Source: a virus. From it: a stretch of DNA of 64,000 bases. The notes below the pieces were generated by a model that saw only the letters and a list, made by a program, of their open reading frames with translations, was not told the DNA's origin and ran no database searches. This document shows positions 18,236 to 53,968 of the stretch, piece by piece (the first letter of the stretch is position 1; the number at the start of each line of letters is the position of its first letter). The stretch lies in the IMG/VR virus record IMGVR_UViG_3300032236_001850, positions 52,392 through 116,391 of that record; one strand, given 5' to 3'. The position numbers were made by a program, and so were the translations under genes.

Positions 18236-18496
18236 ATGAAAGGCATGTTAGAGATTATCATATTGGGAATTGTGTTAGTACTAGGATTCCTATTTATAGG
18301 AGACACTGAAATCACATTCTCTCCGTTCACCTTCAAAATGAATGCTCCATTAAATGCAGCAGGTTGGATCCTATTGTCAATTGGTGTTGCATTAATAAGT
18401 GCGAACGCTAGACAAAAAGGACGCAGAGAGGCTATTGATAACATCGTGGTTCACATCGATAGTAAAGGGACAACTAAACCGGAAGATCTTAAATAA
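18236..18496 (+). CDS. small membrane protein
   Basis: ORF track; two TM helices. Confidence 0.35.
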   Translation: MKGMLEIIILGIVLVLGFLFIGDTEITFSPFTFKMNAPLNAAGWILLSIGVALISANARQKGRREAIDNIVVHIDSKGTTKPEDLK

Positions 18497-19050
18497 TGGG
18501 AGCTGCTGTTTTAGGACACTCGGAGGAGAAACCAATCCACCCAGCATATCGGGAAGTAGTTGGTAATCTAATAACCATGGCACAACAAGGTAAATTCCAG
18601 GTGATCACACACGGATGCAATTGTTTCTGTACCATGAGAGCTGGAATAGCTCCACAGATGGCTAAGGCTTTCGGATGTGACAAGTTTCCAATGGAAGGTC
18701 ATCAACATAGAGGTGATTACAACAAACTCGGACAGATTGATTGGAAGATTAACACCTACACTGGTGGAACTGGTGAATTTGATTTTTTTGAATTTGACTT
18801 AGCTGTTGTTAATTTGTATTCCCAATATGGATTTGGACTAAATCATGATGGCGGGACAGCTAGACCTATCGATTATGATGCCCTCAGATTGGGCCTCAGA
18901 AAAATAAACCATCAATTCAAAGGTAGACACGTAGGACTCCCGAAAATAGGCGCAAAACTCGCGGGTGGAGATTGGGAGATTATAAAGGTGATCATCCAAG
19001 AGGAACTGAAAGATTGTAAAGTAACCGTTGTAATATACGATAAAGAATAA
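18496..19050 (+). CDS. macro-domain protein (putative ADP-ribose binding/hydrolase)
   Basis: HGCNCFCTMRAGIAPQMAKAFG resembles the NAAN..GGG..AI..AAG macro motif; VGLPKIGAKLAGGDWE resembles the FPaISTGiyGfP motif. Confidence 0.5.
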   Translation: MGAAVLGHSEEKPIHPAYREVVGNLITMAQQGKFQVITHGCNCFCTMRAGIAPQMAKAFGCDKFPMEGHQHRGDYNKLGQIDWKINTYTGGTGEFDFFEFDLAVVNLYSQYGFGLNHDGGTARPIDYDALRLGLRKINHQFKGRHVGLPKIGAKLAGGDWEIIKVIIQEELKDCKVTVVIYDKE

Positions 19051-19475: not shown

Positions 19476-19676
19476 ATGGCAACATTAAGCGAAGAAAACG
19501 CAGAACAATTATTTGCGGAAATCGACAACGAGGGACTAGGTTACTGGACTCAACATTATGGATATAAGGGAGAGGAAGATCCCAAGCTAAGGGAGCTTTG
19601 CGAAAAAGCTAAAAAAGCTATGAATGAGCTGGATTCTCATATTCAGGCTATTTTCGATGAATATGGAATAGGTTAA
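19476..19676 (+). CDS. hypothetical acidic protein
   Basis: ORF track. Confidence 0.35.
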   Translation: MATLSEENAEQLFAEIDNEGLGYWTQHYGYKGEEDPKLRELCEKAKKAMNELDSHIQAIFDEYGIG

Positions 19677-20523
19677 AATCATTTTCCCATATTGACACAA
19701 TATTATAACCAAGATCATTTAGATATTTTTCCCTGATCTTGGTTTTTCTATATAAATCACCAAATTTAGTATTATTTACGACATTCACGTCATCATGTCC
19801 GTAAATATCAGGATTTCCGTGCCAGAAATCGCCATTAAATTCATACACAGTTTTTGTCTTGCTACAATATCCATCAACAATATATTTACCTATTCTAACC
19901 TGTCTTTCCTTTATATTCAACGAATCCAACCAAAGATTTTCTTTCACACCAAATCTATCACCACATTTTGGGCATCCCTGTCCGTTAATGTGGTTTCTAG
20001 TACGTTGCTTAAATTCTCCATGCTCCCTACATACTATGGTTATCTTTGTCCTAAGATTTGAATATTCAACCAATGAATAATCATATTTTTCACCATGCAC
20101 AGATCTAAATAGGGATTTTATTTTTTCTGAGTGTATTCTTGTTGATTCTCTTGCACATTTATCACAAGTTCTTCCGCTTAAGTGATTAGCTGGGGATTGT
20201 CTGAATTCTCCATGTTTCTTGCATATTATAGTTACGTGTGGGAAAGATCCATTATATTCCACTTTGGAATAGTCATATTTGTTCCCATGAACTTCAATCG
20301 CTCTGTTGATGAAGTTTGGATCCTTTGGTTTCATTCTTCTGCATTGATTGCATCCTATACCCCTCATATGATTACTTGCTCTCTGTACAAATCTCCCATG
20401 AACTTTGCATAATATATTTACCATGGATTGATTGTTTTTATAATCAGCTTCAGAATAATCATACTTATCGCCATGAATACTAACTGAAGCCTCAATAAAA
20501 TCAGATTTTGTCAGTTTTTTCAT
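19648..20523 (-). CDS. putative homing-type endonuclease: three Zn-ribbon HGxKYDYS repeats + C-terminal Vsr/DUF559-like PD-(D/E)xK nuclease
   Basis: three copies of HG(D/N/E)KYDYSxxxY...(I/V)xCxxHGxFxQxxxxHxxGxGCxxC; C-terminal KYLNDLGYNIVSIWENDF resembles Vsr-like GW.V.RFWE; lone minus-strand gene in a plus-strand block. Confidence 0.5.
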   Translation of the reverse strand: MKKLTKSDFIEASVSIHGDKYDYSEADYKNNQSMVNILCKVHGRFVQRASNHMRGIGCNQCRRMKPKDPNFINRAIEVHGNKYDYSKVEYNGSFPHVTIICKKHGEFRQSPANHLSGRTCDKCARESTRIHSEKIKSLFRSVHGEKYDYSLVEYSNLRTKITIVCREHGEFKQRTRNHINGQGCPKCGDRFGVKENLWLDSLNIKERQVRIGKYIVDGYCSKTKTVYEFNGDFWHGNPDIYGHDDVNVVNNTKFGDLYRKTKIREKYLNDLGYNIVSIWENDFNLFHIHRK

Positions 20524-20656
20524 TCGTATATTTTTTTATTTCCGATTCTATAAAATTACGTATTCTTTTACTCATATCCATTCCATTCTCTTCCAATATC
20601 TTCCTGTATTTTTCGTATGTTAGGGAGTCTATCCTTACTGTTATTAATTTTTTCAT
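20501..20656 (-). CDS. ribbon-helix-helix (CopG/Arc-like) small DNA-binding protein
   Basis: hand-translated 51-aa ORF MKKLITVRIDSLTYEKYRKILEENGMDMSKRIRNFIE...; beta-strand + two helices pattern of RHH; overlaps start of downstream nuclease gene by 23 nt. Confidence 0.45.
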   Translation of the reverse strand: MKKLITVRIDSLTYEKYRKILEENGMDMSKRIRNFIESEIKKYTNEKTDKI

Positions 20657-20748
20657 ATTTTGATTTTTTGTATATACATATATATCAAAATATATTTTAT
20701 TTTACCGGAATAATGTTATATATTTGCAATATAATAATAAAATAAACA

Positions 20749-21822
20749 ATGGAAAATAATAAAAAGTTTTTAAAGAACTATTTAGATGCATTCTCCCCCG
20801 TAGGAAAAGAATTTGAAGGACAGAAAATTTGGATTGATTACGTTAGACCCTTTGTTAATGAAATGAGAGTAGATGCTTATGGTACAGCATACGGTCTTAT
20901 CAAGGGAACAGGAGAAAAGAAAGTAATCTTGGAAAGCCACGTTGATGAAATTTCCTGGATTGTGACAGAGATAGAATCAAATGGAATGATCCGGGTTAAA
21001 ACTAATGGTGGATCAGACAACATGATTGCCCCATCAATGACAGTGCTTGTCCACACTCACGAGGGTAAAAAGATACCTGGAGTTTTTGGATGGCCTGCTA
21101 TCCACGTTAGAGAAAAAAGAGTTGAGATGGGACCGGAAGTTCACGAACTTTGGGTTGACCTTGGAGTTGACACTGCAAAGAAAGTTGCAAAACTTGGTGT
21201 TGAGGTTGGAAACTGCGTTACTTTTGACCAACCTTTCTTTGAACTTGGTAAGTATTACGTTGGTAGATCACTAGACAACAAAATTGGTGGATATATCATC
21301 GCAGAGGTTGCAAGAGAGCTTAAAGAAGAGGGTACGGTTTTACCATTCGACCTTTACATCGTTAATGCTGTCCAGGAGGAAGTTGGTTTATTTGGAGCGA
21401 GATTGATTGCTCAAACAATTAAACCAGACATCGCATTGGTTCACGATGTTACACACAACACAAACTCTCCTAAGATGAACAAAGCCAAATCTGGTGATGT
21501 TAAGGGAGGTGCAGGTCCGGTTATCGAGTATTCATCTCAAAACCACAAAGACCTAATCAAGATTGTTAGAGACGTTGCTAAGAAAAAAGAAATCCCTATG
21601 CAGCTGTCTGTTGGATCATACGGAAACGACACTGTTTCTTTCTTCCTTGAAAACGTCCCTACGGTGATCGTAGCGAGTCCGTTGAAGTATATGCATACTA
21701 CAGTAGAGATGGTTCACAAAGATGACGTAGCGGCTGCAATACAAGTTTTTAAAGAGACATTAAAGCAGTTGACTACAGGTACTATCGTTACCATCAACGA
21801 CCAAACACATAAATACGTATAA
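20749..21822 (+). CDS. M42 family metallo-aminopeptidase (FrvX/glutamyl aminopeptidase-like)
   Basis: 357 aa; N-terminus and YVGRSLDNKIGGYII (cf. GkalDDRaGc) pattern typical of M42 peptidases. Confidence 0.7.
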   Translation: MENNKKFLKNYLDAFSPVGKEFEGQKIWIDYVRPFVNEMRVDAYGTAYGLIKGTGEKKVILESHVDEISWIVTEIESNGMIRVKTNGGSDNMIAPSMTVLVHTHEGKKIPGVFGWPAIHVREKRVEMGPEVHELWVDLGVDTAKKVAKLGVEVGNCVTFDQPFFELGKYYVGRSLDNKIGGYIIAEVARELKEEGTVLPFDLYIVNAVQEEVGLFGARLIAQTIKPDIALVHDVTHNTNSPKMNKAKSGDVKGGAGPVIEYSSQNHKDLIKIVRDVAKKKEIPMQLSVGSYGNDTVSFFLENVPTVIVASPLKYMHTTVEMVHKDDVAAAIQVFKETLKQLTTGTIVTINDQTHKYV

Positions 21823-22082: not shown

Positions 22083-22253
22083 ATGGCAAGAATAGAAATC
22101 AAAGATCTAAAATTAAGCTCAATCATTAAGAGGTGTGAGTCTTTAAAATTAGATCCAAAGAGGGTCAAAATAGAAACCGCAATATTCGAGGACATATCAA
22201 ACCCCGACATGTATTACACTAAACTATATTTAAAATATGAAAACAACAAATAA
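22083..22253 (+). CDS. small hypothetical protein (56 aa)
   Basis: hand-translated ORF MARIEIKDLKLSSIIKRCESLKLD...; overlaps start of next gene. Confidence 0.25.
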   Translation: MARIEIKDLKLSSIIKRCESLKLDPKRVKIETAIFEDISNPDMYYTKLYLKYENNK

Positions 22254-22716
22254 ATACGTATTTTTCTGGAATGGGATATACTCGCAGTGGCATAAAGCAA
22301 ATATGACCATTGACAGAATAGAATATAATTCATGTGAACAGTACATGATGCATCAAAAAGCAATGCTCTTTGGCGACGAGGAAACTGCAGAATTAATCAT
22401 GCAGGAAAAAAATCCAAGAGAGCAAAAGAAATTTGGTAGAAAGATTCAGGGATTCGACAAAGCAATCTGGGACAAGAACTCATTGGCCATAGTTTATCGT
22501 GGCAACCTTGCTAAGTTCTCACAGAACGAGGGTTTAAAAAAGGAGCTTCTTGCAACAGGAGACAGAATCCTTGTTGAAGCATCCCCGGTTGATAACATTT
22601 GGGGAATAGGTCTAGATGAAAAAGCAAAAGGTGTGGAAGATCCAGCAAATTGGAAAGGTCTAAACCTATTAGGTCAAGCAATAACACTTGTGAAAAATGA
22701 ACTTCGAGGAGCTTAA
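22237..22716 (+). CDS. NADAR-domain protein (YbiA-like)
   Basis: FFWNGIYSQWHKANMTIDRIEYNSCEQYMMHQKAMLFGD matches the NADAR signature (F..G..SNW....F..dg..y.s.EqymmaqKa..FgD). Confidence 0.65.
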   Translation: MKTTNKYVFFWNGIYSQWHKANMTIDRIEYNSCEQYMMHQKAMLFGDEETAELIMQEKNPREQKKFGRKIQGFDKAIWDKNSLAIVYRGNLAKFSQNEGLKKELLATGDRILVEASPVDNIWGIGLDEKAKGVEDPANWKGLNLLGQAITLVKNELRGA

Positions 22717-32990: not shown

Positions 32991-33018
32991 AAACCCGTGA
33001 GAAATCACGGGTTTTTTT
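32991..33018 (+). terminator. rho-independent terminator after flotillin gene (bidirectional with 33023 minus gene)
   Basis: aaacccgtga-gaaa-tcacgggttttttt. Confidence 0.6.
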
Positions 33019-33022
33019 ATAT

Positions 33023-34219
33023 CTAAATATATCCTAGCTTTAATTTTATATCATCTATTGTCATATCCCATTTTTTTATTTTTCTGTATAAATGTTCATT
33101 CATTGCTAATTCACTAAAATTATTATAATTACATTTTACCCTGATGAGATAATCAATATGCTCATCCTTTGTTTTAAATCTTTTTAATTTTTTTGTATCA
33201 TTTATAATACCAAGAATCCGGCAATCAATCAAATTATATTTTTTAATTCTCTTATATAAATCAAAGTCATTTTTTTTGAGTTCACTCAATTTAACATTTT
33301 CACATTTTTCAATATCACCAGATCTTAGCATAAATAGAAAATTCAAATTTGGTTTATAGTTTATGATCTGATCCTCACTAACATAAATTCCTGTAATTCT
33401 TTTTATATCATCAATCTGGTTAATCAATTGGGTTTTAATATTTTCTATATAATTTCTATAGTTTTTAGACTTTTCGTCAATTACAAGTAATTCTACGTTA
33501 GCTTCTTTGCAAATTTTTATTTTTTCCTTGTCCTTCTCCTCAGTATGGAATCTTTTACCGTTATATTCCCAACCAATTCTCCATTTATCAAAATAGCAAT
33601 CAATTTCAAGAGGGTATATGACATTTCTATTATTAAAGCTACATTCAGTGCTCAAAATATATTCAAGAATATCCTTTAGTATTAATTGGGGTATGCTAAC
33701 AGATCCACCGATTTTTAAATTCTCAAGCTCATCCAATAAGCCAAATTTTCTTGCTTTGTTATACACGTAATTATCCATATAAGAAAACTCACTTCTTGTT
33801 GTGTATTTTAAAGCTTCGCCTCTAACAAAATCGTATGACACATCTCTTCCATTTTCTTTACATTTTTTAGCTCTTAAAAAATCTATTTCCTCTTTGGTCC
33901 TCTTTATTCCCATGCGACCAATTTTTCTTATAACAGATTTTCTTGTCTTGTCTAATTCTAGTGCAATCTCAGCATTTGATAAAATTCTATAATTATTTAA
34001 TATAAAAATCTCCTCATGCTCACTCCATTCGGTTTGCTTGTATTGATTTCTTTTCTTCCTTGATTTCTTCATAAAATCCTCATTTTTATAAACACCAATA
34101 GAATTTGCTTTAGCAATGAGTGTTCTCCTTTTTATGTTAAGAATGTTAGACAATTCATCGTTATCCGTTGAAGGGTACAATTGAATGAGTTTTTTAGTTT
34201 TTTCCTCGGTCCAGATCAT
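33023..34219 (-). CDS. putative homing-type endonuclease (N-terminal HTH repeats + PD-(D/E)xK/Vsr-like core)
   Basis: two W(T/S)EE...L..L....N.E(L/I) HTH-like repeats; DCYFDKWRIGWEYNGKRFH...ELLVIDE resembles D...E.K nuclease core of DUF559/Vsr; lone minus-strand gene. Confidence 0.4.
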   Translation of the reverse strand: MIWTEEKTKKLIQLYPSTDNDELSNILNIKRRTLIAKANSIGVYKNEDFMKKSRKKRNQYKQTEWSEHEEIFILNNYRILSNAEIALELDKTRKSVIRKIGRMGIKRTKEEIDFLRAKKCKENGRDVSYDFVRGEALKYTTRSEFSYMDNYVYNKARKFGLLDELENLKIGGSVSIPQLILKDILEYILSTECSFNNRNVIYPLEIDCYFDKWRIGWEYNGKRFHTEEKDKEKIKICKEANVELLVIDEKSKNYRNYIENIKTQLINQIDDIKRITGIYVSEDQIINYKPNLNFLFMLRSGDIEKCENVKLSELKKNDFDLYKRIKKYNLIDCRILGIINDTKKLKRFKTKDEHIDYLIRVKCNYNNFSELAMNEHLYRKIKKWDMTIDDIKLKLGYI

Positions 34220-34295
34220 GCCAATTTTTATTATTTTATTCTATATATCCATCAATAAATAAAATATAAAATAATCGGAACAATAATCATTTAAT

Positions 34296-34835
34296 ATGTA
34301 TAACAATAAAGAAAATCAAATGATACACGAAATAAAACCAGATTCAAAAAATTTGGAAAATTTGGATTTTTCTGAAAATTCAATAAGCATCTTCCTGGCA
34401 GGATCAATTGATATGGGATCATCGAAAAAATGGGCTTCAGAGCTGGTTAATAGAATTACTGAAATCAACCCATTTGAATTTGATATTGTTTTTTATAATC
34501 CCAGAAGAGATGCGTGGGATAATACATGGGAGCAGGAGGAATCTAATCCGGTATTTAATTATCAAGTGAATTGGGAATTAGATAATATTGAGGATTCGGA
34601 TATTATATTCTTTAATATCCTACCAGAATCAAAAAGCCCAATAACTCTTATGGAATTAGGTCTATGTGCTGGTAGTAATGCTAAGGTTATAGTTTGCTGT
34701 CCAGATGGATTCTACAGAAAAGGAAACGTTGACATTCTATGTACAAGATACGAGATGCCACAATATCCAGATTTTGATTCCGCTTTCGGTGCTTTACTTA
34801 CCACAATAGGTAGAGAGGCCAGAAGGAAATATTAA
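34296..34835 (+). CDS. nucleoside 2-deoxyribosyltransferase-like protein
   Basis: ISIFLAGSIDMGSS...ELGLCAGSNAKVIVC pattern (cf. iYLAGP...E.G.A.alGKpV). Confidence 0.5.
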   Translation: MYNNKENQMIHEIKPDSKNLENLDFSENSISIFLAGSIDMGSSKKWASELVNRITEINPFEFDIVFYNPRRDAWDNTWEQEESNPVFNYQVNWELDNIEDSDIIFFNILPESKSPITLMELGLCAGSNAKVIVCCPDGFYRKGNVDILCTRYEMPQYPDFDSAFGALLTTIGREARRKY

Positions 34836-34897: not shown

Positions 34898-35791
34898 ATG
34901 AGTGAAATTAAAAAACACATATCTGTTGTAGAGACAGATAATGGACACGGAATTCTGAGTTATCTAACAATGGAAATGTCAGATAAATTAAGTCCGGAGG
35001 GATTTCCAGAGATGGGATTGAAAATGAAAACAAAACACGTCGAGCTTGAAACACATCAAGTAAAATCGGTAATCAATTCCGAACAGATGCAAGATCTCGA
35101 AGCAATGGGAATTAACACTTTGGATACGTTAAATTCAACACTACTGAACGAATCCGAAATGGGACAGGAGAAGCAAATTTATAAAAAAATGAAATTGCTT
35201 GGTTATGAATCCAACAGAAAATTATGGACAAAGTTCCAAAATTTTGCACATAAATGGACGGGATATGTACCAATGTTAGATATCACAAAGGATGGAGCTT
35301 TATTAAGAAAGATGAATTTCATGTCACAGATCATAGCAACATCATCAAGACTTGGTCCTGCTAACTTTGTAATAATTGGTCCAGGTTTATTAGAACAGTT
35401 TGTTGCAGATCCAGGATTTGTGCACGTTCAACATGATTCTTCATCAACTCCGGGTAAAATCTATTTATGTGGTACATACAGAGATCAGTTTCAAATATTA
35501 ATAAATCCGGGACTTCCGTGGACGGATAAAAGAGTAGTTATGGGTAGGGACTCTTCGGTTCAAAATGAAGGCATATTTATGATTGAACACAAGGAAGGAT
35601 ATGTTTTTGATAAAAGAGAATATGTGAATCCAACATTTCTTACTCCTATGATCGAAATGGTACTAAGAAAAAGATATGCTTTAACGCACACGCAAAACGC
35701 AGCAAAAAATTACATAACATTAACATGTACTAATAAAAAACATAATGTTCTTACACACATTATTGAAAAGTACTTCAAAAAGAAAAAATAA
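34898..35791 (+). CDS. hypothetical protein
   Basis: ORF track, 297 aa. Confidence 0.45.
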   Translation: MSEIKKHISVVETDNGHGILSYLTMEMSDKLSPEGFPEMGLKMKTKHVELETHQVKSVINSEQMQDLEAMGINTLDTLNSTLLNESEMGQEKQIYKKMKLLGYESNRKLWTKFQNFAHKWTGYVPMLDITKDGALLRKMNFMSQIIATSSRLGPANFVIIGPGLLEQFVADPGFVHVQHDSSSTPGKIYLCGTYRDQFQILINPGLPWTDKRVVMGRDSSVQNEGIFMIEHKEGYVFDKREYVNPTFLTPMIEMVLRKRYALTHTQNAAKNYITLTCTNKKHNVLTHIIEKYFKKKK

Positions 35792-37834: not shown

Positions 37835-38064
37835 TGAAACACTTACAAATATTTGAAGATTATTCAATAACTTCACCTTACGGAACAACAACGCTTGATA
37901 AATTTAAAGCCTTAAAAAGAGGGGACAATGTTAAATATATGGGTGATGCCTATGTAGTAGAGGAACCTGGCGAATTTGACGTGCTTTTAAGAAGCAGAGA
38001 CGTTGATGGTGGCGAGATAAGAGTCAACTACAACATGTTCAAAGCAAAAGGAATGATAGACTAG
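37834..38064 (+). CDS. hypothetical protein
   Basis: ORF track; ATGA overlap. Confidence 0.35.
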   Translation: MKHLQIFEDYSITSPYGTTTLDKFKALKRGDNVKYMGDAYVVEEPGEFDVLLRSRDVDGGEIRVNYNMFKAKGMID

Positions 38065-38633
38065 GATAGCAAATCCTTAAGAACCCATTCAGTTCTATCT
38101 TCTATTGGAATAAGTGAAAGATCCACATAAGGAATTCTTTCAAGCTCCAGGTAATTTTTAATTATAGAATCCAGTCTAATTATTTCCTCCCTATTATGGA
38201 ATCTAATTCCATCGTTCTCGTCATCCTCTAAGAATGGCGGAACGTAATAGATCTTATGCCACTGACCCAGTGATTTAAGTATTTCCTTTTGTATATGGTT
38301 AATAGTTGCAATATCCTTTAGTGACAATTGTTGACCAAAGAGAGATCTGAAGTAAAAGTAATTTAAAATGGTACTGGAATCGCAAATTACCCATTCCTTA
38401 GAATCAACATACATTCTTTCCCTTCCTAGCTGTTCATAAAATATAACTAGCTGATCTGTCGGAGTGTCTGGTATTCCCCATTCCGCAATATAATCAGTAG
38501 CAGCTTCACCAACAAATATAGAATTTTTCTTGTCAATCTTAAGTCTATAATGGACAGAGGTTGCTAAAGTGGACTTACCTGAACTTGGAGCTCCAATCAC
38601 ACAAACCAACTTGGATTTTTTTAATTCCTTCAT
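38061..38633 (-). CDS. NadR-type ribosylnicotinamide kinase-like P-loop protein
   Basis: VCVIGAPSSGKSTLATSV (cf. NadR RNK VAILGGESSGKSTLV); collinear similarity through ...DGIRFHN...IPYVDLS...DRTEWVLKDL to NadR C-terminal domain. Confidence 0.6.
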   Translation of the reverse strand: MKELKKSKLVCVIGAPSSGKSTLATSVHYRLKIDKKNSIFVGEAATDYIAEWGIPDTPTDQLVIFYEQLGRERMYVDSKEWVICDSSTILNYFYFRSLFGQQLSLKDIATINHIQKEILKSLGQWHKIYYVPPFLEDDENDGIRFHNREEIIRLDSIIKNYLELERIPYVDLSLIPIEDRTEWVLKDLLS

Positions 38634-40939: not shown

Positions 40940-40953
40940 TGCTGGATTTTTTT
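40924..40953. terminator. bidirectional terminator between convergent genes
   Basis: aaaaaatccagc-ttga-tgctggattttttt. Confidence 0.6.
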
Positions 40954-41572
40954 ATTTTAACCATTTGTCAAAAATGTTCAATGCTTTTTTATATTTTTCC
41001 TTCTTGTCTTCGAATTCAGAATTTGTCAATTTAATTCCCTTGAGAAATTTTTTCCTTGTTGGTTCATCAATCGCATCACTCATGATAAATACAGACCCTG
41101 GATTTTTTGAATATGTTTTAATCATATAATCAGCTATTTTACTGTTATCATTAAATTGGGCTTTATCAATATCACCATATATGCTTCTTATTCCCTTCTT
41201 TTTATATTGTTTTAGAGTCCAATCATAAATGTACAGAAATTGCTGATTCCATCTTAATAAAGTATCCTCACCATCAAATTTTTTCATTATTCTCGGTGAA
41301 CCTGGAAGAAATTGTCCCTGCCAAGCTCGTAAGGTTTCAGGTATTCTCCTAACTAACCCATTGGAATAAACCGTGATATTATTACTTGGTCTATCTAAGT
41401 CAAGCTCTTTATTATAAAGTCTCATGTTCATATGTCTCTTTATAACATCAGTGCTGGAATCATAATAGCCCATTGCAGTCAATAATAGAAAACCTGGGAG
41501 TTGTTTTATATCTTCGTATGTGTAATCATGCGAATTTGATTCAAACAGTTTAAAAGTCATTAAATTTTTCAT
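40952..41572 (-). CDS. hypothetical protein
   Basis: ORF track; convergent with upstream gene, shared bidirectional terminator 40924-40953. Confidence 0.45.
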   Translation of the reverse strand: MKNLMTFKLFESNSHDYTYEDIKQLPGFLLLTAMGYYDSSTDVIKRHMNMRLYNKELDLDRPSNNITVYSNGLVRRIPETLRAWQGQFLPGSPRIMKKFDGEDTLLRWNQQFLYIYDWTLKQYKKKGIRSIYGDIDKAQFNDNSKIADYMIKTYSKNPGSVFIMSDAIDEPTRKKFLKGIKLTNSEFEDKKEKYKKALNIFDKWLK

Positions 41573-50675: not shown

Positions 50676-51021
50676 TTATTAGTAATTCTCCCATGACCTC
50701 TATGAGACCAACGAGCTTCTGAAATTCAACCTGTTCCAGTTTTATAGATCCAGCTGTTCCTTTAACTAATGCTTTTACCAAAGCTTCCATCTCATCCTTC
50801 ATCTCAGCTGCATCGAATTTACCAGCAGCAGCTTTTTCATAAACCGGAAGTTTAACTCTGAAATGATGGTAGGTTAAAAGCGCATCCCCACCTTTTTCTT
50901 TAGCAGCTTCAGTTATCTTGGTTGCACCAGCTAATCTTGTTTTTGCAAACTCTTCGAAGCTTTCGCCTTTTTTATCTCCTTCGTTTAGAAAATCCGAATA
51001 TAATTTAATGTAGTTGTCCAT
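50662..51021 (-). CDS. hypothetical protein
   Basis: ORF track. Confidence 0.4.
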   Translation of the reverse strand: MDNYIKLYSDFLNEGDKKGESFEEFAKTRLAGATKITEAAKEKGGDALLTYHHFRVKLPVYEKAAAGKFDAAEMKDEMEALVKALVKGTAGSIKLEQVEFQKLVGLIEVMGELLIRKGA

Positions 51022-51866
51022 TATGATAAATTTCTTTTGTCTGTATTTAACGAACCAAGCTTTCCTTGATTTTTAAGTTTAATGTAACGATCTGTAGCAA
51101 ATCTAGGTCTTGCATAAGTCATTATATCTAATCCCTGATTATTTTTAACAATCTCCAATGCTTTCTCTAGTGTTTCAACCATATATCGGCAATCATAAAG
51201 AGCATCGTGTGCACCATTAGGATCAACACCCAATCCTGCGGAAACCTTAGGTAAAGAGGATGTAGGTAACTTACCACTATTAGATCTTCCTATCTTATCC
51301 AATATTGCAGCAGCTTCTGGTTCTGTTTCTGCAAGTTTCTCCAATGTAGGTAAAAGGAAATACCCAAAGAAATCTTTAGTGTCAAATATCTCATGATCCA
51401 ATCCACCAAATTCTTTTCTAACATTTATCATTGGCATATCGAAAGGAGCATTTTGAATAAGTAGAATAACATCACCAAATCCATCTATAAATTCTTTAAG
51501 TTCAGTAAGTACTTCCTGTTCATCGAAGTATTGTCCGCCACTTTCTCCGTATTTATTAAACTTTAGAGCTCCAGATATTCTAGATCCAGGTAATAGTTTT
51601 TCTGCTCTTATGTTTTGATTGAGTTTTATCTTCTTGTTGTAATCTCCTATCTCTTCAAAAGTCAAAGTATCAAAATCAAACTCATAGGCAACAGCAGCTA
51701 CTTGAGTTAATTGTTCTTGTCTTGGACCTCTAAGTCCAGTTGTTTCGGTATCAAGAGCAATAAAAGTGTATTCCTTTCTTTTTTCTAACCAATCTAATAG
51801 TTCTGATTGCGTTAAATTTTTAATGCTTTCATTTAAAAATTGCGAAAATGTTGATAAATTTTTCAT
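51021..51866 (-). CDS. DnaQ-like DEDDh 3'-5' exonuclease
   Basis: Exo I motif FIALDTETTGL; Exo III motif HDALYDCRYM. Confidence 0.65.
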   Translation of the reverse strand: MKNLSTFSQFLNESIKNLTQSELLDWLEKRKEYTFIALDTETTGLRGPRQEQLTQVAAVAYEFDFDTLTFEEIGDYNKKIKLNQNIRAEKLLPGSRISGALKFNKYGESGGQYFDEQEVLTELKEFIDGFGDVILLIQNAPFDMPMINVRKEFGGLDHEIFDTKDFFGYFLLPTLEKLAETEPEAAAILDKIGRSNSGKLPTSSLPKVSAGLGVDPNGAHDALYDCRYMVETLEKALEIVKNNQGLDIMTYARPRFATDRYIKLKNQGKLGSLNTDKRNLS

Positions 51867-51968: not shown

Positions 51969-52697
51969 ATGGAATTAAAAAGAAATCCTAAAGCTCCTTC
52001 TAATAACAGAAGCTGGTCAACAATGGACGATTCAACATTAATCAAAATGGCAAGAGGTGGTGCTTCGGCTGCAGAGATTGCAAAAATCTTAGGAAGAACT
52101 GTTATGGCGGTAACTACAAGAAAACACAATCTTCATGTTGATGTTCGTTTAACATCATCTAAAGGTAAAGGTGTGGATGCACCAAAATCAGTTTCTGTTA
52201 GAAATAGAAACAAGAAAAAAGAATTGCCAGTTAGAGTTATTTCAAGAACTGCTGCACCACAACCCGTTAATGTTGTTTCAGCGGGAATCACAAAGGTAAC
52301 AAAACCAGTTTGGACTAAAGAGGAAGACGCTAAACTTTTATCTTTGGCTGCTGAGGGTAAATCAGCAAAGGAGATTGGAAAGATTCTAGGAAGAACATCA
52401 GTTGCTGTAACTGTTAGAAAATACGGATTGAATAAATCTCAAGAGTTAACTAACAAAAAAGCAAACGTAAAAGTTGACAACAAAGCCGACGAGAAAAGAT
52501 CTGCAATGTTGGCGAGAATGGAAAAAATGAGAGCTGCTAAGGGTAAAAATAAAAAATTACCAGTAGTGGAAGAAGCTGCTTCGGTTCCAGCTACCAAAAT
52601 GGAAAAAATTGTTTCTTCAGCTGAAAGCGATTTTGATGCTCTTTCAAGAATTGCTAAAAGTACAGGAGCTACAATCACAGTGGTTTTTGGAAAATAG
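51969..52697 (+). CDS. DNA-binding protein with two HTH repeats
   Basis: ORF track (51942); ATG 51969 fits motif spacing; repeats WSTMDDSTLIKMARGGASAAEIAKILGRTVMAVTTRK / WTKEEDAKLLSLAAEGKSAKEIGKILGRTSVAVTVRK. Confidence 0.5.
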   Translation: MELKRNPKAPSNNRSWSTMDDSTLIKMARGGASAAEIAKILGRTVMAVTTRKHNLHVDVRLTSSKGKGVDAPKSVSVRNRNKKKELPVRVISRTAAPQPVNVVSAGITKVTKPVWTKEEDAKLLSLAAEGKSAKEIGKILGRTSVAVTVRKYGLNKSQELTNKKANVKVDNKADEKRSAMLARMEKMRAAKGKNKKLPVVEEAASVPATKMEKIVSSAESDFDALSRIAKSTGATITVVFGK

Positions 52698-52715: not shown

Positions 52716-52748
52716 AAAAAAGCCTGAGTTTATGCCCAGGCTTTTTTT
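52716..52748. terminator. bidirectional terminator
   Basis: aaaaaagcctg-agtttatgcc-caggcttttttt. Confidence 0.5.
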
Positions 52749-53448
52749 ATGATTCCATATATCTTACAAACGCACTAAATTTAAGATAATAATAGGCTAT
52801 AAATTCAAGCATGGATTTATCTTTTAATTCTACTAGGTATTCGTCAACCTCAACCTCGGTATAATTAAGATAAACACTTACCCAAAGATCAGGAAATTCA
52901 TCGAAGCTTTCAAGATCAAATTCATTATCAACTGGAGTTAGCACAGAAATTTGTTTTGCAACTTTCTCAGGAGTGTTCATCTTTATCCAGTCCATCACAT
53001 CCTTCTGTGTTTTCTGTAATCCAAATTTAAGTTCAGCCTTTTGCGCTTCAGCTTCAAGCTCGTCACTCATGTAGATTGCCAACATAAAATACTCCCAAAC
53101 TTCAGCATCTGATAAATTGGAAAATTCCCTAGTTGCATCCTGAGTAAATATTTCTAATTCACCTCTTTCTATAAATTGTAATGCGTGAACAAGTTCATGA
53201 GCCATAGTGGGATCATCAACATTTCCTGGTCCAACCTCAATGACTATATTATTAGGTCTGGATTCATGGGAATCGAAGCTAGCTTCAACACCAGGAACAT
53301 TAACTTGTTTCAATTCCAAATGAGGATTTAATCCCTCAACCTTCACCCTATTCCTCTTCCATATGTCGGTGTCACCAATAAGTCTTTCACATTGTGAAAT
53401 AAAATCACCAGCATCTCCAAAACTTTCAAACATTTTAATGTGCATCAT
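52747..53448 (-). CDS. putative HExxH zinc metallopeptidase
   Basis: MAHELVHALQF HExxH motif. Confidence 0.5.
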   Translation of the reverse strand: MMHIKMFESFGDAGDFISQCERLIGDTDIWKRNRVKVEGLNPHLELKQVNVPGVEASFDSHESRPNNIVIEVGPGNVDDPTMAHELVHALQFIERGELEIFTQDATREFSNLSDAEVWEYFMLAIYMSDELEAEAQKAELKFGLQKTQKDVMDWIKMNTPEKVAKQISVLTPVDNEFDLESFDEFPDLWVSVYLNYTEVEVDEYLVELKDKSMLEFIAYYYLKFSAFVRYMES

Positions 53449-53968
53449 TCTTTACTTTCTTTTTAATGGTTTCTATTTTTTTCATTATGTCGCCAACCTT
53501 TTTGCTGTTAATGCCAGCTTCCTGTATCACTATTGGTGTCTTTTCCATTTCATCAGGTTCAGGAGAGAATGCAACATCACCACAGCCTTCGCTGGATGTG
53601 ATATGTGCATGTGTTTTTAGAGGATAAGATTTGACAGTTCTTGCAGTTTTAGATTTACCTATATCATCCTTAAGTTCATCAAGCATTGCTACAAATTCAG
53701 CTTCCCTTTGTGCACTTTCATTTGTGAATTTCCTTTGATTTGTTACTATTTTCATATCGAGGGTATCCACAACCTTTTCTAGGTATGTTATTCTTTTTTC
53801 CTGTCTCTTGGTCTCAGCCACACACTCAGTGTTGCTTGTTGTTAGTGCATCTATTAGTTTTGGACCAAGTGTAACAAGAACTATAGTCATCAGAAGCATC
53901 AGAAGTGCTAATATCCTCTGTGCAAATGTGAATTTATCTAGTATTTCTGCTATTCCTTTGAATTCCAT
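53435..53968 (-). CDS. membrane-anchored hypothetical protein
   Basis: ORF track; N-terminal TM helix. Confidence 0.4.
   Translation of the reverse strand: MEFKGIAEILDKFTFAQRILALLMLLMTIVLVTLGPKLIDALTTSNTECVAETKRQEKRITYLEKVVDTLDMKIVTNQRKFTNESAQREAEFVAMLDELKDDIGKSKTARTVKSYPLKTHAHITSSEGCGDVAFSPEPDEMEKTPIVIQEAGINSKKVGDIMKKIETIKKKVKNDAH

Follow-up and report, generated by a model that had tools for sequence, protein, structure and literature searches.

A leader and small ribbon-helix-helix gene as a candidate portable controller of homing endonuclease genes in a T4-like giant phage

Introduction

What does a small ribbon-helix-helix (RHH) gene do when it stands in front of, and overlaps, a nuclease gene that lies antisense between two phage genes? 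Such a pair occurs in the 64,000-nucleotide stretch of virus record IMGVR_UViG_3300032236_001850 (positions 52,392 to 116,391) that was analysed here and is called the window. Two nucleases are encoded on its minus strand, one of 291 aa (NUC291), preceded by the 51-aa RHH gene, and one of 398 aa (NUC398), which stands alone (Table 1). Two questions follow. First, are these nuclease genes mobile? Second, what is the RHH gene for? The answer that we consider probable is that the cassettes are homing endonuclease genes (HEGs) in precise intergenic insertions, and that the RHH gene, together with the leader before it, forms a portable autorepressor-operator controller which has been swapped before at least four partner families. 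It builds on the gene content and folds of the cassettes, on their insertion polymorphism, on the conservation of the leader and RHH module, on a swap junction, and on the association of a sequence motif with the RHH loci.

Unrelated nuclease families behind one RHH gene

A 51-aa open reading frame (ORF) is present where the original prediction had placed it, with the predicted 23-nt overlap, out of frame, with the start of NUC291. Contexts of related RHH genes were sampled from 7 of the 16 RHH clusters of a 5.8-billion-protein database and from the viral and metagenome contigs searched, where a metagenome scan with the RHH alignment gave at least one new locus; for partner counts, duplicates were removed and a cut-off of at least 45% RHH identity was applied. 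At all 25 loci the downstream ORF overlaps the RHH stop by 8–32 nt. The partners fall into four unrelated families, DUF723-Vsr, GIY-YIG/NUMOD3, LAGLIDADG and DUF7487, at least three of which are recognised nucleases, and, when RHH lineage, partner family and flank are considered together, the 25 loci represent about 8 independent combinations.

At the M42 aminopeptidase site that is occupied in the window, another locus (L002) carries an RHH protein 85% identical to that of the window, and the partner that overlaps it is a GIY-YIG/NUMOD3 endonuclease. At a different junction, between NADAR and a 109-aa gene (L003), an RHH gene with 74% protein identity overlaps a LAGLIDADG endonuclease. Counted from the RHH ATG, the DUF723 cassette of L098 and the GIY-YIG cassette of L002 do not differ at all between −20 and +122; from +123 onwards, 11 nt short of the endonuclease start codons, no homology is left. 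The junction is direct evidence that the endonuclease behind one RHH allele was exchanged recently. On the 386,471-bp contig Ga0502763_0000020, two RHH cassettes lie ~3 kb apart (L125, 2368–3376; L096, 3001–3907), with leader and RHH ~93% identical and with different endonucleases, DUF723-Vsr and GIY-YIG. The gene order between macro184 and M42 on this contig is unlike that of the window, a NADAR-SIR2 block being found between them, and the two cassettes thus flank a rearranged module.

In the close RHH family, the DUF723-type, GIY-YIG and LAGLIDADG ORFs all begin with ATG-(A/G)AA-AAA within the RHH tail, a common start that could have served as microhomology in swapping or could be a shared re-initiation signal. 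At L111 (2451–3892), an RHH and GIY-YIG pair is co-oriented with its neighbours. The ORF immediately upstream of the pair encodes 162 aa and has an HNH-like motif (HLDH...N...H), an arrangement suggestive of endonuclease genes in tandem. Endonuclease genes that have no RHH partner occur in these phages as well, mostly co-oriented with their neighbours. Distant RHH-like ORFs of 55–56 aa were also seen in two uncultured ~640-kb phages (L127, 1989–2691 of LR756502.1; L128, 1986–3268 of LR745206.1), followed, without overlap, by genes whose products start with MKHI(K/R)xFD and matched no known family.

The RHH protein

The RHH protein of the window has sub-threshold matches to a PHROG Arc-like repressor (9e-5) to the NCBIfam model RelB/ParD (8.7e-5) and to DinJ (0.36), and its hhalign comparison with CopG (1.2e-4, probability 55%) is sub-threshold too. 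A close family member, P0196, passes the cutoffs of Pfam RHH_1, DUF6364 and RepB-RCR_reg. The sequence of the window protein follows the pattern of a β-strand (LITVRID), a helix, a G-x3-S turn and a second helix. The identity of codon positions 1 and 2 is 0.89–0.91 as against 0.68–0.71 at position 3, which marks RHH as a real coding gene under purifying selection. Members of the family are 49–51 aa long, just the RHH fold with ~8 residues over, and their tail varies with the start of the overlapping endonuclease. The subfamily is rare, with 88 clusters at E ≤ 1e-3 and 4 at E ≤ 1e-10 among 1.84 billion representatives. Fusions of RHH with a nuclease (the 'Rosetta stone' case) were sought by an exhaustive profile search and none was found, all 88 clusters being at most 163 aa.

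Is the pair a toxin-antitoxin system? In a type II-like pair, the RHH protein would neutralise the nuclease by direct binding and repress the operon as well. The gene order, with a small RHH gene first and the nuclease overlapping, is typical of such systems; weak matches to RelB/ParD, RelB/DinJ, VapB and BrnA antitoxin models were obtained, and JGI, which calls the RHH ORF in other assemblies, labels it antitoxin. However, the antitoxin models all score far below their curated cutoffs, and PADLOC returned nothing for the nucleases and one marginal match for RHH. Neither a toxin-binding extension nor a conserved cognate toxin family was found: the 49–51-aa protein has no room for the former given its variable tail, and one RHH allele pairs with structurally unrelated nucleases, a range that no inhibitor acting by specific protein-protein contact could cover. 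The partners, moreover, have the architectures of homing endonucleases in polymorphic intergenic insertions. Since a protein of this size cannot plausibly neutralise four unrelated proteins directly, the toxin-antitoxin explanation is very unlikely. The original prediction had likened the arrangement to either an antitoxin-toxin or a repressor-nuclease pair; the latter is the reading favoured here, and the former is made very unlikely by the missing extension and the four partner families.

Conserved elements of the leader

The leader is kept in all cassettes of the close family, whichever host gene adjoins (M42, NADAR, a 110-aa or a 109-aa gene), where a host gene is the phage gene adjoining the cassette insertion. 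Its pairwise identity (0.83–0.86) exceeds that of the RHH third codon positions, and the leader itself is therefore constrained. Three short elements stand out in it.

The first is an 8-bp palindrome, GTATATAC, the candidate RHH operator. It occurs once in the window. Among 27 copies in 1.14 Mb of related phage DNA, 23 are followed within 40 nt by an RHH ATG, and 23 of the 25 RHH loci have it, the remaining 2 having one-mismatch variants. It is found 1–2 nt before the RHH ATG even in L111 and L116, in which RHH is 50–58% identical and the rest of the leader is different. The palindrome is absent from the empty-site sequences. A perfect 10-nt inverted repeat, ATATTTTGAT at 20655–20664 and ATCAAAATAT at 20684–20693, brackets the palindrome and covers the RHH start codon.

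The second element, GATATATA, abuts the palindrome and faces inward. It is rare, with 10 copies in the window, 6 of which head minus-strand units at 4–22 nt before the leading gene, that of NUC398 included, and 8 of the 10 are 4–22 nt upstream of some gene start (minus strand 20679, 34242, 37389, 41577, 51884 and 53985; plus strand 30024 and 41779). By its placement, GATATATA looks like a phage promoter element, and it may represent a phage-specific promoter class distinct from the boxes described next. The sequence TT(C/T)CG(A/G)T often stands ~25–30 nt upstream of it.

The third element faces outward and has the form TAnnTTTG, the −7 motif of Bacteroidota sigma-A. Of 37 plus-strand copies in the window, 12 precede a plus-strand gene start by no more than 60 nt, where 3.0 would be expected. 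These 12 boxes (2450, 3988, 5054, 9997, 13019, 16298, 20719, 29003, 31006, 38709, 44310 and 44924) often read TA(T/C)ATTTGCA and stand 4–43 nt upstream of the starts. The enrichment fits a Bacteroidota-type −7 element and points to a Bacteroidota host. Judged by this motif, the cassette appears to supply a promoter to a gene that it has separated from its operon.

Could the leader instead act as RNA? A hairpin sequestering the ribosome-binding site, like that of T4 I-TevI, was considered and rejected: the fold that the 10-nt inverted repeat predicts is weak (−7.2 kcal/mol, z −2.1) and 6 other cassettes do not keep it, and the leader element thus most likely acts as DNA. No known RNA family was found when the cassette was compared with Rfam, and a scan for sigma-70 promoters and terminators gave nothing above shuffled expectation.

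Two other roles for the module have to be weighed against these data. The RHH protein might be an accessory factor of homing, whose binding near the target or the cassette end would aid cleavage, strand invasion or repair, or would protect the occupied allele. Its strict co-occurrence with endonuclease genes and the conserved cis palindrome at the cassette edge would agree with this, but the palindrome is inside the cassette beside the RHH start and is missing from empty sites, the partner endonucleases possess DNA-binding modules of their own (NUMOD3, Zn fingers, the LAGLIDADG core), and extra protection is unnecessary where the insertion already disrupts the junction. We regard this role as decidedly unlikely. 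Alternatively, leader and RHH might chiefly serve the phage, as regulator or promoter of M42, NADAR and other genes, with endonucleases inserting repeatedly at a tolerated position downstream. That the outward box is invariant and abuts the host-gene ATG, and that cassettes differ in the gene next to the leader but not in the flank next to the endonuclease, can be read in this way. On the other hand, empty-site relatives have neither RHH nor leader, so the module does not belong to the ancestral phage gene set; no partnerless RHH was found among family members of at least 45% identity; and the palindrome is on the RHH side, ~45 nt from the outward box. A service to the phage is accordingly an improbable main function of the module.

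Insertion sites and mobility of the cassettes

Cassette 1, comprising endonuclease, RHH and leader, is an antisense insertion that separates a 66-aa host ORF, ending in TAA at 19674–19676, from the M42 ATG (20749). One edge, 19676|19677, directly follows that stop, and the other is a few nt before the M42 ATG. Relatives at this site were retrieved via the flanking M42 gene. By DNA alignment, both nuclease and RHH are absent from the M42 junction of L001 and L003, where the M42 ATG comes 2–3 nt after the preceding stop, as TAA-AA(A)-ATG; the junction sequence of the L001-type empty site includes GAAATAGGATAAAAATGGAAAAAA. In empty-site relatives, a gap of 2–5 nt separates the host gene from the ORF before it. 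The 8 final codons of NUC291 (NLFHIHRK*) are read from antisense host DNA outside the cassette edge, which explains why its alleles range from 285 to 294 aa.

The second site, that of NUC398, is empty in 7 relatives (L059–61, 64, 65, 68 and 84), in which the SPFH gene is followed directly by the deoxyribosyltransferase gene. In other phages this site holds orthologues of NUC398 (75% and 59% identical), and homologues with 43% and 32% identity are found at unrelated loci. Both junctions are thus empty in related phages and homologues lie elsewhere, as the original prediction had expected of mobile genes; it had named a lack of nuclease profiles and presence at the same loci in all relatives as grounds for doubt, and neither, when checked, overturned this reading. 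Its reading of the two genes as free-standing homing endonucleases is borne out by the combination of nuclease core, DNA-binding module and polymorphic intergenic insertion. The sequence data support the placement of NUC291 and NUC398 among free-standing HEGs of the putative Vsr/DUF559 (PD-(D/E)xK, 'EDxHD'-like) class.

It might be argued that the nucleases are domesticated or decayed relics that no longer move, and that the conservation of RHH reflects recent common descent only. NUC398 orthologues at the same site down to 59–75% identity suggest long residence, and the partner in L116 has no detectable nuclease domain. Against this stand the catalytic residues, invariant across 20–32 homologues, the presence/absence polymorphism at both sites, the homologues at unrelated loci, and an RHH gene that is under purifying selection and bears a recent swap junction. 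An immobile relic is therefore hard to credit, and we hold this explanation to be very improbable.

Among the DUF723 and GIY-YIG cassettes, only the leader-side gene differs. Endonuclease genes are known to mark boundaries of exchanged gene modules (PMC10448857), and rearrangement beside a resident cassette is consistent with such genes acting as recombination boundaries. The cassette of L003 and the two-cassette genome remain independent placements. Around the M42 site (about −700 to −100 from the RHH ATG), L098 and L002 form an identity mosaic, with 100% in distal M42, about 85% in the proximal ~400 nt and 98–100% in leader and RHH, which looks like gene-conversion tracts around the cassette.

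Architecture of the two nucleases

Both nuclease ORFs lie exactly where the original prediction had placed them and contain the motifs it had pointed out, GYNIVSIWENDF and WEYNGKRFH. NUC291 carries three repeats, described originally as Zn-ribbons with an HGxKYDYS motif. The repeats are real, with an internal self-match of 40% over 127 aa, but the profiles identify them as DUF723/DUF4379 treble-clef fingers rather than Zn-ribbons (Pfam DUF723, 26.9 bits against a cutoff of 20.9; DUF4379, 26.1 against 24.5). In an alignment of 20 homologues with the same architecture, the Cys/His/Tyr ligand columns are invariant in all 3 repeats, the pattern being Y-x-Y ... C-x2-H-G-x-F ... H ... C-x2-C, and the fingers are followed by a C-terminal block VDGY...YEFNGDFWHGNP...SIWE. 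This block holds the predicted Vsr-like PD-(D/E)xK core: DUF559 (PF04480) matches at 24.1 bits, above its cutoff of 20.6, in a partial match over profile positions 36–64, and the acidic and His catalytic residues of a Vsr-like fold are conserved. Two PHROG 'endonuclease' families match NUC291 at 1e-41 and 2e-40. Its family has at least 7,937 matches, with homologues of 290–510 aa and a varying number of fingers. DUF723-type finger arrays are already known as DNA-binding modules of phage homing endonucleases (PMC10448857).

NUC398 is built differently. Its N-terminal repeats, predicted to be Myb/HTH-like, are Myb/GcrA-like helical repeats. Of the hidden Markov model checks suggested for the two proteins, those of NUC291 succeeded for DUF559, DUF723 and DUF4379, and NUC398 had zero Pfam matches, so that its sequence does not place it in Vsr/DUF559 (PF04480). 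A search of PDB by sequence profile returned HMG-box matches only, which are spurious, and a fold search was needed instead. That search detected a Vsr/I-Bth0305I-like core, in agreement with the predicted Vsr-type nuclease, and across 57 homologues P203, E205, D207, E218, Y219, G221, H225 and K233 are invariant. In a profile-profile comparison of the NUC291 and NUC398 families, the same catalytic motifs are aligned, weakly (E 0.0016, probability 16%).

Proposed mechanism and its weak points

How might the parts of cassette 1 work together? Deduced from sequence as they are, DNA binding, repression, promoter activity, cleavage and homing are put forward here as a model. Cassette 1 is pictured as a three-part mobile unit of leader, RHH protein and endonuclease ORF. 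The ~92-nt leader contains two divergent promoter-like elements, the outward TAnnTTTG and the inward GATATATA. The outward box would drive the host gene that is cut off from its upstream operon and so keep it expressed. The 49–51-aa RHH protein, as a dimer or tetramer, would bind GTATATAC and perhaps the adjacent GATATATA too. MetJ binds tandem 8-bp boxes, and the proposed binding at the adjacent GTATATAC and GATATATA boxes would resemble this. Once bound, RHH would occlude the inward promoter element and repress the RHH-endonuclease transcript, and through the out-of-frame overlap of 8–32 nt, translation of the endonuclease would be coupled to that of RHH and lower. On entry into a naive genome without RHH, a burst of endonuclease would be expected, and expression would drop as RHH builds up. 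By recombination at one fixed point close to RHH codon 41, the controller has come to stand before at least four unrelated partner families. As RHH would recognise the leader and not the nuclease, the module would work with any payload, and such a payload-independent controller would explain why the same 42 N-terminal RHH codons precede four partner families. Whether leader and RHH are in full a portable self-limiting platform, joined to unrelated HEG families at one junction, constituting the first dedicated trans-acting controller of HEGs and re-promoting the host gene, is a proposition on which we find the balance even.

Several observations weigh against a portable controller of nucleases. 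Many of the 25 loci are close kin, so that the counts overstate independence. The family DUF7487, of unknown function, is 'nuclease-like' by sequence motifs only, and in the 177-aa partner at L116 (820–1495; RHH 50–58% identical), which has sub-threshold matches to DUF723-type Zn fingers, no nuclease domain could be detected; this partner may have decayed from an endonuclease or may be a derivative that binds DNA. RHH-like ORFs of 32–38% identity in two ~640-kb phages have non-nuclease neighbours, and the association is hence specific to the subfamily of at least 45% identity. The RHH fold of the 51-aa protein is likely, with the profile matches of the window protein itself remaining sub-threshold. 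The distance between the palindrome GTATATAC and the ATG is 15 nt in the close family and 1–2 nt in the distant lineages; the role of the palindrome may differ between lineages, or it may be part of the promoter. The flank on the endonuclease side of the DUF723 and GIY-YIG cassettes is always a macro184 homologue or the small ORFs next to it, and some of the apparent 'sites' may have arisen when host modules were rearranged around a cassette already in place, rather than by independent homing. Finally, NUC398 manages without RHH, as do several endonuclease genes in relatives.

Comparison with known systems

The controller (C) proteins of restriction-modification systems offer a parallel in regulation. 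Their small genes stand directly upstream of, and often overlap, the nuclease gene, with palindromic operators at their own promoter, a logic which delays and limits nuclease expression after entry into a new genome. The likeness covers regulatory logic and gene overlap only: C proteins are helix-turn-helix (HTH) proteins where ours is RHH-like, and the present cassettes would spread by homing, not as a restriction-modification module. No methyltransferase was found in the cassette, nor the combination of HTH, methyltransferase and C-box that defines C-protein control of restriction-modification.

The HEGs of T4 share more of the genomic setting. There, HEGs embed promoters for downstream genes and overlap upstream ORFs, and I-TevI represses its own synthesis (PMC2988022). 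The precise intergenic insertion, the patchy occurrence among relatives and the tightly limited expression of the T4-like seg and mob genes resemble what is described here, as do the start codons that overlap the upstream ORF (20 bp for segC, 23 bp for mobA), suggesting translational coupling, and a cassette-borne promoter for the downstream host gene (PMC2988022). Nevertheless, T4 HEGs have no dedicated gene for a trans-acting regulator, I-TevI repressing itself via its own DNA-binding domain; all of them but segD are co-oriented with their neighbours, in contrast to the antisense cassettes of the window; and they are GIY-YIG or HNH enzymes, whereas NUC291 and NUC398 are of the Vsr/DUF559 type.

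As nucleases, the two are ordinary, being members of the known Vsr/DUF559/EDxHD HEGs with DUF723 or Myb-like arrays. Among the closest known systems are the I-Bth0305I ('EDxHD'), Vsr and DUF559 proteins (PDB 3r3p, 1cw0 and 3hrl). I-Bth0305I differs in that it is intron-encoded and has DNA-binding modules unlike the three DUF723 fingers or the Myb/GcrA-like repeats. The T5orf172 HEGs resemble NUC291 in their 'beads-on-a-string' array of DNA-binding Zn fingers with a variable number of repeats (Barth et al. 2023, PMC10448857) and in their position at boundaries of exchanged gene modules, but their catalytic domain is GIY-YIG-like rather than Vsr/DUF559 and no RHH partner is described for them (PMC10448857).

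The nearest analogue of the RHH cassette is the Arc RHH of IS605, with the control of I-TevI and of C proteins as functional parallels. Arc represses the TnpA and TnpB promoters of IS605 (bioRxiv 10.64898/2026.09.24.754181). Like our protein it is an RHH microprotein of ~50 aa, often unannotated, whose gene lies inside a mobile element and overlaps its neighbour; it binds the divergent promoters in the intergenic region of the element, and the nuclease it represses is one whose homing-like cleavage keeps the element in the genome (bioRxiv 10.64898/2026.09.24.754181). The two are likened here by the architecture of their elements, not by sequence comparison. Unlike the present cassettes, IS605 is an insertion sequence with an RNA-guided nuclease, and for IS605 there is no evidence of one RHH module common to unrelated nuclease families. 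In a full-text search of the literature combining homing endonuclease with ribbon-helix-helix or Arc-like, no RHH gene paired with free-standing homing endonucleases was found described, and a shared module of leader and RHH controller appears to be undescribed.

Source phage and genomic surroundings

The window derives from a T4-like giant phage of ~430 kb: a gp23-type capsid gene is located at 34898–35791, and proteins identical to those of the window are found on contigs of up to 434,721 bp. Megablast of both nuclease regions against 50,697 GenBank phage records gave zero matches, and the sole match by sensitive blastn was one of 189 nt to Flavobacterium phages, so no close GenBank relative of the phage was found by either search. 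Its host is probably a member of the Bacteroidota, a suggestion drawn solely from motif usage and the weak match to Flavobacterium phages.

GC dips and inverted GC skew occur at both nuclease regions (33001–34000: GC 0.265, skew −0.32). The original prediction spoke of two isolated minus-strand genes in a long plus-strand block; they are not the only ones in the window, and further minus-strand genes lie at 38061–38633, 40952–41572, 51021–51866 and 52747–53968. These are not endonuclease genes (a kinase-like ATPase, an RNase T-type exonuclease and unknowns), and no additional endonuclease homologue was found within the window. For the minus-strand ORFs at 40952–41572, 52747–53448 and 53435–53968, of 177–233 aa, neither Pfam nor PHROG gave a significant family match; a GATATATA box heads two of the three. 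Genes of auxiliary metabolic type surround both endonuclease genes.

Table 1. Positions of the cassette components, the two nucleases and neighbouring genes in the window
Feature	Position	Strand	Remark
Cassette 1 (endonuclease, RHH and leader), ~1.07 kb	19677–20748	−	DNA alignment with empty-site L001 and L003
Cassette leader, ~92 nt, RHH ATG to host-gene ATG	20657–20748		conservation across cassettes
TATATTTG (TAnnTTTG)	20719–20726	+	outward, 22 nt before M42 ATG; invariant in 10/10 cassettes
GATATATA, promoter-like box heading the RHH-endonuclease unit	20679–20686	−	22 nt before RHH ATG
GTATATAC, 8-bp palindrome, candidate RHH operator	20670–20677		directly abuts GATATATA box
51-aa RHH protein, proposed autorepressor	20501–20656	−	profile matches, codon-position conservation
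RHH/endonuclease junction, ATG-(A/G)AA-AAA start	20512–20523		
NUC291	19648–20523	−	3 DUF723/DUF4379 treble-clef Zn fingers and C-terminal Vsr/DUF559-type domain
NUC291 finger repeats	approx. 20338–20523, 20143–20337, 19954–20142	−	
NUC291 Vsr/DUF559-type nuclease domain	approx. 19675–19953	−	
NUC291 tail, antisense host sequence	19648–19676	−	
NUC398	33023–34219	−	no RHH partner
NUC398 N-terminal Myb/GcrA-like helical repeats	aa ~1–120		
NUC398 Vsr/DUF559/EDxHD-type nuclease core	aa ~175–250		invariant E205, D207, E218, H225, K233
NUC398 C-terminal helical region	C-terminal		
NUC398 leader	34220–34295	−	GATATATA box at 34242–34249; kept in same-site orthologues
Macro/'phosphatase'-like protein gene	18496–19050		
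M42 aminopeptidase gene	20749–21822		
NADAR gene	22237–22716		
SPFH/Band-7 protein gene, 641 aa	31047–32972		
Nucleoside 2-deoxyribosyltransferase-like gene	34296–34835		directly upstream of gp23-like capsid gene

Significance

How selfish nucleases persist at low cost in densely packed phage genomes has been learned mostly from T4, where each HEG has a makeshift solution of its own, be it an RNA hairpin, self-repression, a borrowed promoter or the like. The present data suggest that the RHH module is a reusable 'safety switch' for mobile nucleases. If this is true, a transferable module of repressor, operator and promoter would be a general solution to the cost of the nuclease, and endonuclease cassettes would be modular, with a controller and an exchangeable nuclease. 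It would then be a mobile-element counterpart of the C proteins of restriction-modification, with payloads exchangeable behind a common control. The system is compact and testable, its parts being a single ~50-aa protein, an 8-bp box and some 90 nt of DNA, and, if repression is confirmed, it could provide a compact regulatory part for the engineering of Bacteroidota phages. The cassettes add to recent evidence that unannotated RHH microproteins restrain the nucleases of mobile elements.

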